From Escherichia phage vB_EcoM_Lh1B: 64,000 nt of DNA. The notes below the pieces were generated by a model. That model was not told where the DNA came from. It saw only the letters and a program-made list of their open reading frames with translations, and made no database searches. The position numbers and the translations under genes were made by a program. Of the stretch, positions 3,301-38,984 are shown piece after piece; the first letter of the stretch is position 1, and every line of letters starts with the position of its first letter. Location of the stretch: the sequence record OK428535.1; one strand, 5' to 3'.

Positions 3301-3584
3301 TGAAACTCGAAGGTTATATTGTTACTGATAAGCCGTTTGTTGAGGCTAACCTTTCACGTTCTCAAGTTGTCTATAAAGACATCGATGTCCCTGCTGAAAT
3401 TGTTAAAGCGAANCCCAGCTGGCNAATCAACCNCGTTTCTTTGGAAATCACNAANCCGTTTATCAACGANCCAACCGNCCCATTTGTCGACATGGGTAAT
3501 TTCCGCGAGATTCTTTCCCCGCATCAATACCAGACAGTTGCACAGAAGAAAGGGAAGCTGCTCATTGAAACGTTGAGTGTGTAG
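3300..3584 (+). CDS. hypothetical protein (94 aa)
   Basis: ATG overlaps upstream stop (TAATG); AAGGAG upstream; n-masked middle. Confidence 0.55.
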   Translation: MKLEGYIVTDKPFVEANLSRSQVVYKDIDVPAEIVKAXPSWXINXVSLEIXXPFINXPTXPFVDMGNFREILSPHQYQTVAQKKGKLLIETLSV

Positions 3585-7388: not shown

Positions 7389-7420
7389 GGAACCCTTCGG
7401 GGTTCCATTTNTTCTTTTTT
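7389..7420 (+). terminator. intrinsic terminator
   Basis: GGAACCC-TTCG-GGGTTCC hairpin followed by T-rich run. Confidence 0.75.
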
Positions 7421-7473
7421 ACGCATGACCTTTTGGATATGAACNNCTAATNCTTTCTCATTANAAGGCAAAC

Positions 7474-9984
7474 ATGCACAAGGTCGAACGTATCATTTTN
7501 AAAGNNTTTACCGGCATGGGGTTACATGAAANNNAAANNTTTGATTTCACCCTTAANTCAACCGTTACCANCATCCTCGGTGGCAACGGCTGCGGTAAAA
7601 CAAGCCTCCTGTCTGTTTTTCTCCCCTTAGCTCCAGCAAAATCAGAATTCCGTGAAGGTGGTTCCTACACTAACTACGCGTTAGTTGGGGACGACCGTCT
7701 TAAGTTTGAAGTCCTGCGTCGTGGCTCTTCTCTGTCTTGTAGTATTTTCAATATCACTAAAGGTGTCTCCATCGTAGACTCGGTAAACGCCAAAGTTTAC
7801 AACTCCATGGTGGAGCAATTAACCGGAATCACCAAAGAAATCAAAGAGTTAATTAATGGTGAGACCTTATTAACTGACGCCACTACCGAAGTTCGTCGTA
7901 AATGGTTTACGTTAATGTCAGAATCTGATCTGACGTACGTTGTTGGTTGCTATCGACGTTTGCGTAAACTCGCTTCCAGTTTAAGTGGGGCCATTGAGCA
8001 CACCGGCCGTAAAATCGGTGAGGCAAAAATGCGCGTGGTGGACGATGAAGAAGATCGTGCACGTTTAGAAGTTCGTTTGAAAGAACTCGATGCTGAGCTT
8101 CAGGAATTAAACCGCACAATTGAAGCGAGACCCGGTTTAGATAACGCCGTTTCGGTTGATAGTATCCGGAAACGCATTGCTTCGTTGCAACCGGCTGTAA
8201 AACTCATTATGGAACGTTATGGCGTTCTGCCTTCTGACGAACTGATTAACGAGTTTCAAAGTCGTGTGGTTGCCTGGCGTGAGCAAGCTGCCTCTGCTGA
8301 AACTGAATGCAACATGTACAATAAAGAGTTGTCACAGCTACTGGATGAGGAGTCGCGTCAAGCGTATCTGATGCGCAACCATACCGGTCTAAAACAAACA
8401 ATCGACAGCTTAAAACAGGAACTGGCAACGTTCCAACAGAACTGGATGTTCCCGGCTCTGTTTGAAGGTACCCGCATTGATGTGGATAGCATTCAGAACG
8501 CGTTAAACGATGCCTGTAACTGGAATTTACCGTTGTCCATGCATCTGGACCAGTTAAAGACAACAGATCGCCTGGGAGCGTTAGAGAAGCGTTTACAGGG
8601 TATGGATTTAACCTCTGCGGGTCTATCTGAAAAGCTGCAACGTTGTGAGAATGTGCTACACGGTTTATACCACGACCGTCAACACTTCTTAGAAACTGCA
8701 GAAGTTGATTGTCCACAGTGTAACCACCGTTTCCGTCCTGGGATTCGTAAGTCGTTACCTGAAATTGAAAAGGCCATCAACGATAATGAAGGTTGGAAGA
8801 AGCAGCTGAAAGACGAAATGGATAGTCTTTTGCGTGACCGCAAAGAGATTGAAGAGGACGTCCGTAGCTTACGTACGATTCGCGAAATCGTCATGTCGTA
8901 TTCCAACCATCCTGTTGTCGGTTTGTTTTTCCGTAAACTGCAGGAGCTGGATATCTTCACCACGGCGCGGGATCGTTACGGTGCCATTGCACGTGCCTTT
9001 ACTGAAGAGCTAGATTCGGCCATGATGTATCTGCGTCAATCGGCGAAGCTTGCAACAGCGGAACGGGAATGGCAAGAGGCTGTTGCCGCAGTAGGTAACG
9101 TTGATGGTGCGCTGAGCCAGAAAATTGAACATATCCGTTCACAACTGGACGGGGCTAACCGTCGACTGATAGAATACCGCAGACAAGCCAATGAGCTGGA
9201 ACGCGAAACCACCCAACTGCAACAAACCAAAGAAGCAATCGAACGTTTCCAAAAAGGCTACGAACATCTGGTATCGGAAATGAACATCTCCGTTAACAAC
9301 GTCGTGGTTCGTGAGTTGTTAAACCGACGCGAAGCGAAGCTCGATGCGTATACTTCAGCTCGTGAACGGTTTCGTCAAATGGAAGGGGCTATTGCACGTT
9401 TAGCGGAATTGGAAAAAGAGCAAGCTGAGTTGCTCAAAGAACACCATCNNGNCNGATTGATTATCAATGCCGTCTCACCCGAAAAAGGATTATTGCGTCG
9501 TTACTTTTATGCTGCGATTACCCGCATCATGGATTTAATGAATCGGTATATCGAAATGGTGTGGGCATATCCGATGCAGGTTATTCCATGCGATCTAACC
9601 GACGGGGATTTGGATTATACTTTCCCGGTGCGATTAAAAGACCATGAAGAACTGGTGCCGGATGTGAAGAAAGGTTCGAAGGCACAGCGTATTATCTTTA
9701 ACATGATGTTTCGTTTAACGGCGTATAAAGCGCTTGGTTTACAAAACTATCCTTTGTTNTTNGATNAANCCNCNNAAGGCATGGATGAANAACANAAAAA
9801 NCGCCTGGTCAACTTCTTTAAATCGTTGGNGTTGTTGGGGGAGTTTTCTNAANTGCTGGTCGTTTCGCATGAAGCGGAAGTTCATTCTAAACTTAACGAA
9901 GCCACCTACTGTGTCGTGGAGCCAGAAGGTGTAACGCTTCCACCGGTTTATAACGAAGGGGTAATAATCAAATATGCATCATAA
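7474..9984 (+). CDS. SbcC/Rad50-like SMC-family ATPase
   Basis: Walker A GGNGCGKTS near N-terminus; long predicted coiled-coil middle with CPQC (CxxC hook-like) near residue 410; C-terminal ...LVVSHEAEV after partly n-masked Walker B/signature region. Confidence 0.75.
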   Translation: MHKVERIIXKXFTGMGLHEXXXFDFTLXSTVTXILGGNGCGKTSLLSVFLPLAPAKSEFREGGSYTNYALVGDDRLKFEVLRRGSSLSCSIFNITKGVSIVDSVNAKVYNSMVEQLTGITKEIKELINGETLLTDATTEVRRKWFTLMSESDLTYVVGCYRRLRKLASSLSGAIEHTGRKIGEAKMRVVDDEEDRARLEVRLKELDAELQELNRTIEARPGLDNAVSVDSIRKRIASLQPAVKLIMERYGVLPSDELINEFQSRVVAWREQAASAETECNMYNKELSQLLDEESRQAYLMRNHTGLKQTIDSLKQELATFQQNWMFPALFEGTRIDVDSIQNALNDACNWNLPLSMHLDQLKTTDRLGALEKRLQGMDLTSAGLSEKLQRCENVLHGLYHDRQHFLETAEVDCPQCNHRFRPGIRKSLPEIEKAINDNEGWKKQLKDEMDSLLRDRKEIEEDVRSLRTIREIVMSYSNHPVVGLFFRKLQELDIFTTARDRYGAIARAFTEELDSAMMYLRQSAKLATAEREWQEAVAAVGNVDGALSQKIEHIRSQLDGANRRLIEYRRQANELERETTQLQQTKEAIERFQKGYEHLVSEMNISVNNVVVRELLNRREAKLDAYTSARERFRQMEGAIARLAELEKEQAELLKEHHXXXLIINAVSPEKGLLRRYFYAAITRIMDLMNRYIEMVWAYPMQVIPCDLTDGDLDYTFPVRLKDHEELVPDVKKGSKAQRIIFNMMFRLTAYKALGLQNYPLXXDXXXXGMDEXXKXRLVNFFKSLXLLGEFSXXLVVSHEAEVHSKLNEATYCVVEPEGVTLPPVYNEGVIIKYAS

Positions 9985-35883: not shown

Positions 35884-36303
35884 ATGAACAATATCGCGTT
35901 TGAAAAAGGCGTTGGCTTACTTCTGAACAACACCATCGTCGCTGGCACTAATAACGCNAACTGGGAAGCGTTAGCACAACGTCTCAAAGACAAGCCGGTG
36001 AAAATCGTGGTGACGAGCGAGTTACCGTTAAACGGCACAATGGCAAACTGTGGTCCAATGTTTGCAGCGTTTAATGTCGACTATGATTGCGGCTCCGCTT
36101 TCTTACAAAACGCCGCGTTACGTAGCCGTCTGTACAGCTGGCGTTTACTAGGTCCGGTAAGTAAAGCCGCAGGTCAAATGGTTAACCAGGGAACACCGAT
36201 GTCGGGTGTAGAAGACCAGACTATCGCCGTTGTCGTTTCTCGCGCAACCGGCCAGCTTAACTTTGCAATCTGCTACGCGTATCAGGAGGAGGAGTATGTT
36301 TAG
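35884..36303 (+). CDS. hypothetical protein (139 aa)
   Basis: AAGGAGAACTATAATG start context. Confidence 0.6.
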   Translation: MNNIAFEKGVGLLLNNTIVAGTNNXNWEALAQRLKDKPVKIVVTSELPLNGTMANCGPMFAAFNVDYDCGSAFLQNAALRSRLYSWRLLGPVSKAAGQMVNQGTPMSGVEDQTIAVVVSRATGQLNFAICYAYQEEEYV

Positions 36304-37156
36304 TATCATTCAGCAAGTTCAAGCGGTCGAAGAGTGGTTTCGGCAAGCGGATATTTACCAATACGGGACACGCGAGCAGCAGCTAGCCAAGTTCTATCGC
36401 ACATTAGGCGACGTCGCTGAAGGTGTGCAGAAGATGGACAACTTGAAAGTGGCGGCGGCCATGGGTCGCTCTCTTTGGGCGTTCGTTGGTCTGTTGCACT
36501 TCGGCAAGCACACGAACGTGGGAGATTTCGTTATTCCACTGGATGCAGCTATAAAAGACCGCACCACGGGAAACACCAAAGAGTTCCGTCTTCATAACCT
36601 TTTTGTTGTTGCCACCGAAGTGGTTGGACTCATATTGCAAGATGAGCACGAGCCCCACAGCTACGTTACCGAGCTGCATAGTTTGGCGCGACAATACCGA
36701 ATGTTGGCGCGTATCTGCGGCCTGGAATTCGGCCGTGTAATATACAACGGACATCGTGTGCTAATCAACACGAAAGGTGAAATGAACGGCATCGGGTTGT
36801 TTGTTCCCGCGTCTGATGATTTTACTGGCGATAAATTGCCTGGTTCTAGACAGATGTCTGGGCCAGCCATCTGTCTGATGTTCCAGACTGTCCTGGACAG
36901 TTGTGTCGCTACGCACCTTGCGCCCTATTGCCACCGGCCGTTTAAACGCGACGAGTTGCCGACAATCAATGCTGCACTCGCAACTACGTTAAACGAACTG
37001 CTGGACAAATATGTTCGTGACTCAGTGCGCTGGAATCGTATCCTGTTCGAACGTGTACCTGAAATAACCGCAGCCTACACAGATGGCGGTGTGAATGTGG
37101 TGATGAATGATGATCTACTTTACTTATTTGAAAGCTTAAAGAGGGATAGTATCTAA
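36296..37156 (+). CDS. hypothetical protein (286 aa), possibly all-alpha NTP pyrophosphatase-like (weak)
   Basis: Start set to ATG 36296 (AGGAGGAGG upstream); stop overlaps thyA start (TAATG). Confidence 0.6.
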
Positions 37157-38187
37157 TGAAACAGTATCTTGAAATGATGCAGAATATTCTGGATGAAGGG
37201 CATGTTAAAGGCGATCGTACTGGGACAGGGACGCTCTCCGTCTTTGGTCGCCAAATGCGTTTTGATTTGCGCAAAGGTTTCCCGTTAGTCACGACTAAGA
37301 AACTCCACCTGCGTTCTATTATTCACGAACTGCTGTGGTTCCTTAGTGGCGATACCAACACCAAATATCTGGAAGATAACGGCGTTACCATTTGGCGGGA
37401 GTGGCAAGATGAAAATGGGAACCTTGGCCCCCTGTATGGGGAACAGTGGAGACGTTGGAAAGATGTGAAACTGGTGCCTAAGAAAAATGCAGCTTTACTC
37501 GAGAAACTGCAAGATGCTGGATACGTGGATTATGGCGACGCGGACGACGGTTCACAAATGTTCGATGCGCGTGTACTTCTGAAACTACACGACCAAATCT
37601 CTAAGGTGATTGACCAACTGCGTAACGATCCTGACAGTCGCCGTATTATTGTCAGCGCATGGAATGTGGGTGAGTTGGATCAAATGGCGTTAGCGCCGTG
37701 TCATGCTTTCTTCCAATTTTACACTCGTGAGCTGTCTATCGACGAGCGGGTGAATTGGGCAGAAGATAACGATAACGAACTCTGGTCTGATTATGTCCAC
37801 AGCACGTACGTACCCGCACCTAAGCGATTAGAGTGGTTGGATAAAGCCAACGTGCCAACCCGTATGTTGTCATGTCAGCTGTATGCACGTTCCCAAGACT
37901 TCTTCCTGGGAACACCGTTCAACATCGCGTCTTACGCATTACTCGTACACATGGTAGCTCAGCAAGTTAACATGGTCCCGGGCGATTTCGTTTGGAGTGG
38001 TGGTGACGTACATCTGTACTCCAACCATCTGGAACAGGCTAAATTGCAGCTGACGCGCCAACCTTTACCTTTACCGAAACTGGTCATCAAGCGTAAACCG
38101 GATTCTATCTTCGATTATAAGTTCGAAGATTTCGAAATCCGGGATCACGTATCCCATGAAAAAATATCTGCACCTGTCGCTATCTAA
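37156..38187 (+). CDS. thyA: thymidylate synthase (ThyA-type) with two in-frame insertions
   Basis: [38 protein letters not shown]...[18 protein letters not shown]...[32 protein letters not shown]...[29 protein letters not shown]...[10 protein letters not shown]...PKLVIKRKP...FEDFEI matches E. coli ThyA blocks including catalytic Cys and PFN motif. Confidence 0.9.
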
Positions 38188-38199
38188 TTAGGAGCGTTT

Positions 38200-38736
38200 A
38201 TGGCTGACAACGTCGTTCCATTCAAACCTAAAGTGGCGGTTGCTACGGACGAACCGCCGTTTATTCCTGTCAATGGACAGAAGATCATCGAGTTTCCAGA
38301 CGAACATCGTGGACAATTGCACGTTCCACAACCGGACGGGACGATGAAAGCTATCGGTTTCCCGATAGCTGAACAAGAATGGTGGACGCTTCTGGCCATC
38401 CAGATGATGTCGCGTGGTCTGGGTGTGTCTACGGAACCTGTCGTTCGCATTAATACCGACCCGTATATCCACGAACAAGGCAGTTGGATGGAACGACGTC
38501 GGACAATGGAGATGCAGATTAGCAAAGAAACGCTTTTGCAAATCGCAGAATCCACACCTTTCATCCTGACCTCATCTTTTAACGGGGATATGGATGAAGA
38601 CCTCTACATGCACCTTTCAGGCTTAGCAGCTGAGCACCGTATTGCAGAAGAAGAGCCTATCTATACCGAAGCGATGATTATCCATCCGACCGGCTTAGAA
38701 GGTAATACCTTTAAACTGATTTGGGTGGAGCTATGA
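38200..38736 (+). CDS. hypothetical protein (178 aa)
   Basis: ORF track; GGAGCG upstream. Confidence 0.65.
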   Translation: MADNVVPFKPKVAVATDEPPFIPVNGQKIIEFPDEHRGQLHVPQPDGTMKAIGFPIAEQEWWTLLAIQMMSRGLGVSTEPVVRINTDPYIHEQGSWMERRRTMEMQISKETLLQIAESTPFILTSSFNGDMDEDLYMHLSGLAAEHRIAEEEPIYTEAMIIHPTGLEGNTFKLIWVEL

Positions 38737-38984
38737 CTGACCGACTTACTAAAACAATTCGACTACCACAAGAGCGTAATGTTCGCAAAGGCGTTGTTTT
38801 AACGGGGGAACAACGGGTTGAATTAAAGGCCCTGTTCCCGGAACAAACCGATTATCATGTCGACCAAACGGNATTAAAAGAGTTTGCAAAGAACGCTCCT
38901 GAAATGCTGCTGCGTAAGAAAGAAGAAGAACTGAATATGCTCCGTAACAGCGTAGACGTTCTCTTTAAAACAATGGAGAAATAA
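38733..38984 (+). CDS. hypothetical protein (83 aa)
   Basis: ATG 38733 with GGGTGGAG upstream (track ORF begins at TTG 38721). Confidence 0.5.
   Translation: MTDRLTKTIRLPQERNVRKGVVLTGEQRVELKALFPEQTDYHVDQTXLKEFAKNAPEMLLRKKEEELNMLRNSVDVLFKTMEK

Follow-up and report, generated by a model that had tools for sequence, protein, structure and literature searches.

In-frame insert modules in the thymidylate synthase of Escherichia phage vB_EcoM_Lh1B, shared with distant jumbo phages

Introduction

Few enzymes are as conserved or as well studied as thymidylate synthase (TS), which is also a drug target; its dimer interface is now being exploited. In L. casei TS, an insert of about 50 aa follows IWDEWA (site A; Ec 84-88 in the numbering of E. 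coli ThyA), and eukaryotic TS carries an 8-aa insert in a second loop (site B). At a third position, the hairpin of site C, these enzymes have bare five-residue turns (VADGK, VNDGK, VVNSE). Phage T4, too, encodes a ThyA-type TS, Td, with surface insertions specific to its lineage; Finer-Moore et al. (1994) reportedly proposed that the dNTP-synthesising complex makes contact at these. In one T4-like Td, that of phage VR26, insertions lie after Ec ~72, close to site A and close to the C-terminus, and the hairpin at site C is minimal. The T4 td gene is, in addition, a classic target of homing endonucleases, and the endonucleases I-TevI and I-BmoI target conserved TS coding DNA (PMC5009752).

Another set of TS proteins is encoded by phiKZ-like and further nucleus-forming jumbo phages, namely 201phi2-1 (B3FJL1), OMKO1, Viktualia, Joad/RisingSun and Ea35-70. 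Here we compare these systems with the TS gene of Escherichia phage vB_EcoM_Lh1B, analyzed within a window of 64,000 nucleotides (sequence record OK428535.1), to which all positions refer. The phage protein has the same types of module at sites B and C as the jumbo-phage enzymes, with the same border motifs, but lacks the large site A insert (~60-120 aa) that those also bear. Their cores are only 42-54% identical to the present one, except for Joad (75%), and the OMKO1 and Joad genes are split after CQLYQR whereas the present gene is unsplit.

Results

Gene structure and insert boundaries

The TS gene is a single uninterrupted open reading frame on the plus strand (37156-38187; ATG start, 343 codons plus TAA), with no N or X in the ORF listing. 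Its start codon shares one nucleotide with the stop codon of the upstream ORF (TAATG), and a likely Shine-Dalgarno sequence, AGAGGG, can be read off about 11 nt 5' of the ATG (37140-37145, plus strand). The upstream ORF (phrog_10269; 36296-37156, plus strand) has weak N-terminal similarity to MazG-like nucleotide pyrophosphohydrolases and is probably translationally coupled to the TS gene. TS probably acts in the cytoplasm, beside this co-translated MazG-like protein; in phage PhiPA3, a TS-GFP fusion was kept out of the phage nucleus.

By employing phmmer against the PDB sequences, the protein was aligned to E. coli ThyA (264 aa; PDB 1tys, 2tsc) in three blocks, all plus-strand encoded, with matching N- and C-termini. 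The first block, aa 1-102 (Ec 1-102; 37156-37461), holds R21, K48, E58, W80, W83 and Y94. The second, aa 146-191 (Ec 110-155; 37591-37728), contains R162/R163 (Ec R126/R127) and the catalytic C182 and ends in FFQFY(189)TR, and the third, aa 237-343 (Ec 158-264; 37864-38184), includes R245, S246, D248, N256, H286, Y288 and the C-terminal PVAI. The 79 residues by which the phage protein exceeds ThyA (343-264) are thus added at two places. Insert 1, at site B, is aa 103-145 (37462-37590, plus strand), where 43 aa stand in place of the seven residues Ec 103-109 (net +36), and insert 2, at site C, is aa 192-236 (37729-37863, plus strand), where 45 aa replace the two residues Ec 156-157 at the hairpin tip (net +43). 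An earlier, sequence-only reading had described the ORF as a ThyA-type TS with in-frame insertions of about 35 and 40 aa at these positions, and both the alignment and a Pfam PF00303 match (E 2e-110) bear this out; the stretches that it quoted as near-identical to ThyA are likewise found in the ORF.

Neither of the previously described insertion patterns fits the protein. An L. casei-type TS was rejected, there being no insertion at site A, and so was a T4 Td-type TS, as identity to T4-like Td proteins is 31-38% (phage VR26 ~31%, tblastn) and their inserts are elsewhere. The 8-aa eukaryotic insert occupies the same loop as insert 1, but is far shorter than its 43 aa.

The AlphaFold2 (AF2) model, which is of a monomer, has the TS fold (pTM 0.81; Foldseek against E. 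coli TS, E = 1e-36, TMt 0.90). Insert 1, with pLDDT 72-90, is predicted to form a beta-alpha-beta-beta mini-domain, while insert 2, with pLDDT 58-92 and low values in its middle, is predicted to be a helical hairpin (helices 195-204, 208-211 and 221-230); pLDDT is also low at aa 170-182. Neither insert is covered by any solved TS structure. A second AF2 model, of the three-insert protein P0065, has the helices at site C in the same pattern and, at site A, a helical module flanked by two strands, although its pLDDT of 69 is moderate and it was taken for secondary-structure pattern only. The best structural match in BFVD was 201phi2-1 TS (TMq 0.88, versus 0.70 for any solved TS), both structures being predicted.

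Insert 2 starts directly after Y189, a tyrosine that borders the dimer interface and corresponds to human Y202. This human residue lies at the perimeter of the interface, packed on F59' of the partner subunit (PMC9831607). Insert 2 would sit at the dimer edge, as a candidate contact to the partner subunit.

The inserts in other phages

Both inserts have recognizable borders. Insert 1 follows QWR and conforms to the site B motif D-[TV]-[RK]-[ILV]-[VI] ... [KR]-G-[YF] ... G ..., followed by DQI, which is seen at aa 103-145 (DVKLVP...DAGYVDYG...) and also in OMKO1, Viktualia and many representative clusters. Insert 2 reads T-R-E-L-S-x-x-E-R ... L-D-x-x-x-V-P-x-R, which falls within the lineage motif at site C, namely T-x-E-[LM]-[ST]-x-x-E-R ... 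L-D-x-x-x-[VI]-P-x-R after FFQF[YW] and before LSCQLY, found here at aa 190-237 with a site C HMM score of 69 bits. Modules of both kinds are present in SPN3US-, Machina- and CR5-type jumbo phages and, at the same two loops, in those of RisingSun, Agrican, phiKZ and FBKp24 type; a TS gene with both is carried by more than 30 phage genomes that were sequenced independently.

A BLAST search with insert 2 in 50,697 phage genomes hit annotated TS genes, including those of phiKZ-like, RisingSun, Agrican and FBKp24 phages. The other matches were two ORFs annotated as "hypothetical protein" in records of phiKZ-like phages and a weak one, probably due to chance (E=4), in an unannotated phage record. 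No match to the module HMM was found among the other ORFs of the 64-kb window. To look for the module outside TS, 38 site C modules were aligned and searched against a collection of 5.8 billion proteins; only 59 candidates had words in common with the query and none of them scored, which does not count as negative evidence.

Furthermore, among the nearest 144 full-length representative clusters, which are metagenomic and clustered at 50% identity, a site C insert (at least 25 aa) was found in 98, a site B insert (at least 15 aa) in 86 and both in 64, with lengths taken from pairwise alignment to E. coli ThyA. For 10 insert-bearing clusters the members were listed, and these were metagenomic sequences. 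The two insertions are not peculiar to one gene: each is a member of a conserved module family that occupies the corresponding loop in distant phages. Judged by these sequences, the inserts mark a large, previously undescribed phage TS branch, no description of which was found in the literature searched.

Constraint on the inserts

Several features suggest that the inserts are kept by selection. The border residues E197, P234 and R236 of insert 2 are invariant and R198 is nearly so, and the dN/dS ratio of this insert against phage CR5 is 0.13, compared with 0.08-0.09 for the core, which indicates that insert 2 is under purifying selection. No relative lacking the site C module was found within the enterobacterial jumbo-phage clade. 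At the same time, the insert middles are hypervariable in both sequence and length, and insert dN/dS reaches ~0.5-1.2 in some close comparisons, where substitutions are few; weak constraint fits these two observations equally well.

The same enzyme and lineage could therefore carry inserts that are neutral loop expansions at permissive surface sites, spread by hitch-hiking with recombination or with endonuclease-driven conversion. This is the best surviving of the alternatives, although we consider it doubtful. TS does tolerate big loop insertions elsewhere, as in L. casei (50 aa at site A) and eukaryotes (12 and 8 aa), and the variable middles, the higher dN/dS values and a sequence mosaic adjoining an intron insertion site (see below) would all be expected from it. 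What speaks against neutral inserts is a presence and position conserved over very distant phages (98/144 clusters), the invariant border residues, the low dN/dS against CR5, the confidently predicted secondary structure and the fact that site C is never lost among the enterobacterial relatives. Our best guess is instead that the inserts have no catalytic part and, as modules of the surface or the dimer edge, serve stability or partner contacts.

Exchange of insert DNA

Compared with the TS gene of Erwinia phage Caitlin, nucleotide identity is 71% in the core and 33% in insert 1, but 94% in insert 2. The high identity is confined to a 141-nt tract over insert 2 (37744-37884, plus strand), where 138 positions (97.9%) are identical to Caitlin against 70.6% in the remaining TS core (P ~4e-22), with breakpoints in the ER codons at one side and the CQLY codons at the other. 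The comparison with SPN3US gives flanks that are mostly 92-100% identical around an insert 2 island of ~37-65%. Relative to SPN3US, the upstream phrog_10269 allele is also replaced (36313-37150, only ~25-70% identical). That allele is not shared by Caitlin, so the insert 2 tract is an isolated exchange and not part of a larger block. To judge from these identity patterns, the inserts behave as recombination cassettes traded between phages, and insert 2 probably came from a Machinavirus-like Erwinia phage, or from a recent donor common to both.

The end of the tract lies 6 nt short of the position homologous to the intron-insertion site of related phages. This site, as known from the phiKZ-like and Joad TS genes, is located after R245, between 37890 and 37891, and inside a divergent ten-residue patch (37885-37914, plus strand; consensus QRSADxFLGV) that differs at many positions from SPN3US, Caitlin and CR5. 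When IMG/VR was scanned for this patch as an exact pattern, no match was obtained. In OMKO1, a group I intron (RF00028, 69 bits) begins directly after CQLYQR, in Joad TS is split at the same codon by a GIY-YIG gene, and in the sister phage SPLA3 an HNH endonuclease is situated directly upstream of TS. No intron or endonuclease adjoins the TS gene in the window. Circumstantially, these neighborhoods point to an endonuclease-driven exchange of inserts, in which homing-endonuclease cuts at the adjacent, highly conserved active-site DNA may have promoted the exchange and the neighboring insert would have been co-converted.

A further-reaching possibility, which we think improbable, is that the inserts are copies of one small, self-contained, TS-specific module that has entered at least three loops (A, C and D), is shuffled by endonuclease-triggered conversion, and exposes a hypervariable face under diversifying selection for a phage-specific interaction. 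In outline, such a module would consist of a strand, a helix capped by S/T-x-x-E-R, a variable part, a helix ending in L-D-x-x-G-V-P-R and a second strand. The face might restrict pairing to homodimers and so keep out the 75%-identical host ThyA, dock to other phage nucleotide enzymes, or allow escape from a host or rival-phage factor by which the phage enzyme is recognized.

Relation to host thyA

The sequence-only reading had also called the gene host-derived. Only in an ancient sense is this upheld. A rough NJ tree places the TS clade of the enterobacterial jumbo phages, which share the gene throughout, as sister to E. coli ThyA. A recent capture of thyA from an enterobacterial host, followed by two new lineage-private insertions, is on the other hand very improbable. 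The core identity of 74.5% to ThyA and the position in the tree are what speak for it, but DNA identity to E. coli thyA is only ~70% across 5426 genomes and synonymous sites are saturated between the two genes, which contradicts a recent event. Moreover, modules homologous to both inserts occupy the same loops in jumbo phages, phiKZ-like ones among them, with a core identity of only 54%.

Enzymatic identity

The PF00303 match covers profile positions 1-266 of 266 with 368 bits against a cut-off of 24.3, which at the E-value given above is far beyond chance. Three NCBIfam equivalog models were exceeded as well, namely NF002499 (430 versus a cut-off of 405), NF002497 (403 versus 327) and TIGR03284 (348 versus 108), and no family other than thymidylate synthase was matched in the NCBIfam and PHROGs searches. 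Over 255 core positions, identity to E. coli ThyA is 74.5%. Catalytic and ligand-binding residues are the same in 26 of the 27 checked. These include the nucleophile C182 in its PCH motif (codon 37699-37701) and the phosphate-site residues R21, R245 (Ec Arg166), R162 and R163 (Arg126'/127') and S246 (Ser167), as well as E58, Y94, H183 (Ec His147), D248 (Asp169), W80, W83, F255 (Phe176), the C-terminal PVAI and the Asn of the PFN motif, N256 (Ec N177; codon 37921-37923). The earlier proposal that this Asn points to dUMP gains from the comparison, because the conservation of N256 together with 25 of the 26 other residues favors dUMP methylation. The sole mismatch is A244 in place of Ec Q165, a residue highly conserved in TS, within the divergent patch described above. 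This substitution counts against the best overall explanation given in the Discussion.

By its sequence, the protein is almost certainly an active folate-dependent ThyA-type TS. Enzymes of this type (EC 2.1.1.45) are obligate homodimers and yield dihydrofolate besides dTMP. The phage protein would use methylene-tetrahydrofolate to convert dUMP to dTMP in the standard way, with Cys182 as nucleophile, Arg21, Arg245, Arg162' and Arg163' holding the phosphate and Asn256 reading the uracil. The annotation as thymidylate synthase is correct, and the gene itself is ordinary.

A dCMP hydroxymethylase similar to T4 gp42 was rejected, since Asp is expected in place of Asn177 and N256 is retained; the fold resemblance to Acj9 gp42 is remote (TMq 0.46). 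The protein could instead be a dUMP hydroxymethylase, or one of the other pyrimidine-modifying enzymes of the TS superfamily, and supply a modified-thymine pathway rather than make dTMP. dUMP hydroxymethylases retain the Asn, sequence cannot fully separate hydride transfer from hydration, and the loss of Q165 would also suit such an enzyme. We nevertheless hold it to be most improbable, in view of the equivalog-level scores to bona fide ThyA models, the core identity, the intact Y94, E58, W80, W83, H147 (Ec) and closing C-terminus, and the NCBIfam and PHROGs matches to thymidylate synthase only, in libraries that contain no curated dUMP hydroxymethylase (SPO1 gp29-like) model. In relatives, moreover, genes for DHFR and thymidylate kinase are present, which agrees with a normal dTMP/dTTP route (PMC6614189).

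Lastly, although group I introns do occur in TS genes of related phages, the notion that the extra segments are small introns, inteins or sequencing or assembly artefacts absent from the mature protein can practically be dismissed: the frame is open throughout, Rfam gave no match at E<=1, RNA folding z-scores are unremarkable (+1.3 and -0.2), 129 and 135 nt are much too short for a group I intron or an intein, PF00303 is the only Pfam match and no Hint/intein domain was found, the real introns of relatives lie elsewhere (after CQLYQR), and the inserts are conserved at the protein level in the more than 30 genomes and in many metagenomic assemblies. The low dN/dS and the AF2 sub-structures agree with protein-level insertions, as first proposed. 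Structured-RNA, promoter and terminator explanations of the insert DNA were also checked and rejected.

Discussion

Taken together, we favor a functional TS of Seoulvirus (SPN3US-like) type that belongs to a lineage of long TS with selected, recombining, non-catalytic insert modules, and put the probability of this joint reading at roughly 0.6. The lineage would be a large phage group with modules inserted into as many as four surface loops, the present protein having one at site B and one at site C, the latter at the tip of the beta-hairpin after Y189. Selection would retain the modules while their middles remain highly variable, and short DNA cassettes would be exchanged between phages by recombination within the conserved flanking codons.

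For an enzyme this well studied, the analysis points to a widespread phage branch with a helical module of 45-60 residues in the interface-edge hairpin and, in a second loop, a folded mini-domain. An exchange of cassettes with such sharp bounds, beside a homing-endonuclease target, would be a natural example of selfish nucleases that may reshuffle the protein sequence of their target gene. Should dimer specificity or partner binding depend on the modules, these would show a way in which giant phages insulate or organize their own cytoplasmic supply of nucleotides, away from the phage nucleus.

Identity and active site of the enzyme

The thymidylate synthase (TS) gene of the window is a single uninterrupted plus-strand ORF of 343 aa (37156..38187), whose product matches PF00303 (Pfam) from end to end (E = 2e-110), scores above the curated thresholds of three thymidylate synthase equivalogs in NCBIfam and matches only thymidylate synthase in PHROGs. 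With its two inserts removed, the core is 74.5% identical to E. coli ThyA over 255 positions. The comparison covered 27 residues with catalytic or ligand-binding roles, and 26 of them are identical, e.g. R21, K48, E58, W80, W83, Y94, R126/R127, C146, H147, R166, S167, D169, F176, N177, H207, Y209 and the C-terminus (E. coli numbering). The sole change is that of Q165, normally invariant in the motif CQLYQRS, to alanine at codon 244 (37885-37887), which is shared with Escherichia phage vB_EcoM_EC001. The AF2 model (pLDDT 79.5, pTM 0.81) fits the E. coli TS structure at a target-normalised TM-score of 0.90. The ThyA-type identity proposed in the sequence-only reading is thus borne out by the domain match, the equivalog cut-offs and the retained residues, and the gene is a correctly recognisable and very probably active TS. 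That this sequence specifies a dUMP hydroxymethylase appears unlikely, and a dCMP hydroxymethylase is ruled out by the asparagine N177.

Genes for DHFR and thymidylate kinase are also present in relatives (PMC6614189). The same paper reported positive selection at codons 89 and 92 of the Seoulvirus TS, which flank the catalytic Tyr94; codons 89-97 of the window (37420-37446) include N89, P92 and E96, and the closest relatives, P0003 and P0008, have E92 and A96. Since a PhiPA3 TS-GFP fusion was kept out of the phage nucleus, the window enzyme, by analogy, probably works in the cytoplasm. In SPN3US, gp100 was termed a predicted thymidylate synthase and found in trace amounts in mutant virions (PMC5694885), whereas the ThyA-type gene in GenBank is SPN3US_0229; the discrepancy comes either from gene numbering or from a second thymidylate synthase, for instance ThyX. 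In each genome, tblastn identified a single ThyA-like locus.

Nature of the two inserts

The enzyme aligns to E. coli ThyA in three blocks, which define insert 1 (aa 103-145, net +36; 37462-37590) and insert 2 (aa 192-236, net +43; 37729-37863) and thereby confirm the two insertions noted earlier. That they are protein-level insertions and not an intron also held: an Rfam scan of 36500-38800 gave no match even at E<=1, the insert RNAs fold no better than shuffled sequence (z = +1.3 and -0.2), and the AF2 model gives both a defined structure. Insert 1 is modelled as a strand (101-108), a helix (112-120) and two strands (124-130 and 137-145) at pLDDT 72-90, and insert 2 as three helices (195-204, 208-211 and 221-230) at pLDDT 58-92; a second domain was not found by Pfam. 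The Rfam and folding results dismiss RNA elements, and recurrence of both inserts in >30 isolate genomes dismisses artefacts. Insert 2 starts one residue after Y189, the counterpart of human Y202, a tyrosine packed against F59' of the partner subunit at the perimeter of the monomer-monomer interface (PMC9831607); therefore the helical hairpin predicted in the monomer model would emerge at the edge of the dimer interface.

Distribution across phages and metagenomes

By aligning jumbo-phage genes, we found four recurrent TS insertion sites (E. coli numbering), namely site A after 84-87 (where the L. casei insert lies), site B at 101-109 (insert 1, and also the eukaryotic 8-aa insert), site D at 135-139 and site C in the 153-158 hairpin (insert 2). 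Modules at site C share the motif T-R-E-L-S/T-x-x-E-R ... L-D-x-x-x-V/I-P-x-R, and those at site B share D-T/V-R/K-I/V-V ... K/R-G-Y/F ... G. In the human, E. coli, L. casei and T4-like enzymes, site C is a turn of 5 residues. With insert 2 alone as query, tblastn matched annotated thymidylate synthase genes with three exceptions, namely two genes called "hypothetical protein" in phiKZ-like records and a weak match (E=4), probably due to chance, in a phage record lacking annotation. The matches extend to distant jumbo phages, including the phiKZ-like SL2, OMKO1 and fMGyn-Pae01 as well as Viktualia, Joad/RisingSun, Ea35-70, Deimos-Minion and FBKp24.

We searched 1.84 billion cluster representatives exhaustively, aligned the results pairwise to E. 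coli ThyA and evaluated the 144 full-length ones closest to the query. Site C holds at least 25 extra residues in 98 of these and site B at least 15 in 86, with inserts at both sites in 64; this ranking favors insert-bearing proteins because the query itself contains the inserts, and the absolute number of distinct clusters is still large. The best structural match among viral models was the 201phi2-1 enzyme (query-normalised TM-score 0.88), while solved TS structures reached <=0.70. No account of these inserts emerged from literature searches; the gene is annotated simply as thymidylate synthase. The inserts are characteristic of a large, so far undescribed lineage of phages; the insertions of the earlier reading are real, but lineage-wide rather than a local novelty, and are exchanged as cassettes.

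In many metagenomic TS representatives, ~250-270 aa are inserted at site B or ~205-215 aa at site A (P0126, P0132, P0145, P0160, P0182, P0184, P0187, P0194, P0202 and P0208), i.e. a whole extra domain inside the enzyme. An N-terminal extension of ~135-145 aa occurs in P0122, P0140, P0148, P0212, P0241 and P0267.

Modules at different sites are probably paralogous. The site C HMM gives 25 bits to the FBKp24 module at site A, more than to that protein's own site C module, both anchor motifs align when site A and site C modules are compared profile to profile (P = 5e-4), and a moderate-confidence model of the TS relative P0065 also has a helical module between two strands at site A. Convergence from similar structural constraints is a possible alternative source of this likeness. 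The 463-aa TS of FBKp24 (Klebsiella phage; L008 637-2028) has module-like inserts at sites A, D and C, each ending in ...L-x-x-x-x-V-P-R/T, and a further C-terminal insertion; its core is 36-39% identical to the E. coli or window protein.

Genomic neighborhood

The window is collinear with EC001 (Seoulvirus, SPN3US-like, 240 kb; record position = window position + 160000), with ~95% identity across the TS gene. Differences between the two are clustered, patches of 82-95% identity lying between long 100%-identical stretches, and the window has 315 N, grouped in 283 short runs that are themselves clustered (e.g. 1901-1948, 3413-3478, 7411-7571 and 9449-9853), none of them inside the TS gene. This pattern suggests a consensus or population assembly, or else a relative with fine mosaicism.

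The TS ATG, preceded by AGAGGG, overlaps the stop of an upstream plus-strand ORF (TAATG; 36296-37156) that is probably co-translated with TS. This ORF belongs to phrog_10269 ("unknown function"), and its N-terminus weakly resembles MazG-like nucleotide pyrophosphohydrolases (phrog_7855, E = 5e-7); about 3 kb downstream there is another gene of the MazG type. In the sister Seoulvirus SPLA3 (Salmonella phage; L012 1737-2504) the place of the phrog_10269 gene is filled by a free-standing HNH endonuclease gene (phrog_8790 + phrog_374, annotated "restriction endonuclease"), which lies directly upstream of TS and overlaps its start.

Origin of the core and exchange of the inserts

In a rough NJ tree of the core only, E. 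coli ThyA has as its sister group the enterobacterial jumbo-phage enzymes, which are 72-80% identical to it; phiKZ-like enzymes are 54% identical to both. Nucleotide identity to thyA is ~70% in all 5426 complete E. coli genomes, so that of the host derivation proposed earlier, recent capture is not plausible. An old gamma-proteobacterial origin of the core is plausible, as is its partial conversion by a host-like gene.

The gene was compared segment by segment with three other phages. Against Erwinia phage Caitlin, nucleotide identity is 71% in the core (dS saturated), 33% in insert 1 and 94% in insert 2; against SPN3US, the corresponding values are 88%, 96% and 53%, and against Cronobacter phage CR5 69%, 40% and 70%. 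The tract common to the window and Caitlin (37744-37884, 138/141 nt) has its ends within the ER and CQLY codons, and its identity exceeds that of the remaining core (70.6%) with P ~4e-22. Along 6 kb, the window is mostly 92-100% identical to SPN3US, with a few shorter dips and two extended divergent islands, namely the insert 2 region (37751-37900) and 36313-37150, i.e. most of the phrog_10269 ORF, which is ~25-70% identical to the SPN3US allele between flanks of mostly >90% and is a second replaced segment adjoining TS. Codons 244-253, just 3' of the Caitlin tract, are unlike all three comparators. The inserts thus behave as recombination cassettes.

The right end of the Caitlin tract lies 6 nt before the intervening-sequence position of related phages. 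In OMKO1 (Pseudomonas phage; L004 586-3055) a group I intron (Rfam RF00028, 69 bits, L004 1653-1890) follows directly after CQLYQR, besides an internal ORF, and in Joad (Erwinia phage; L006 832-3075) a GIY-YIG endonuclease gene splits TS at the same codon, with no Rfam match at the gathering threshold in this locus. Both split genes are annotated as two separate CDS; the second exon of OMKO1 is annotated too late, with ~20 codons (SVDTFLGKPFNITFYSLLTH) missing. Conserved DNA coding for the TS active site is a known target of intron endonucleases (PMC5009752). These cases, together with the HNH gene upstream of TS in SPLA3, point to endonucleases as a possible driver of the exchange. Co-conversion during repair of endonuclease cuts would produce a sharply bounded swap of the adjacent insert, and the same repair would account for unusual substitutions at the target site itself. 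The window gene is without endonuclease and intron; its Q165 to A244 change sits in DNA homologous to the target region and could be a target-site escape or a gene-conversion scar.

Overall, we regard the inserts as selected, non-catalytic surface or interface modules, with a probability of roughly 0.6. The dN/dS of 0.13 between the window and CR5 indicates purifying selection on insert 2, and neutral passengers are a less likely account of the inserts. The window TS is a variant of a very well-known enzyme and not a new kind of system.
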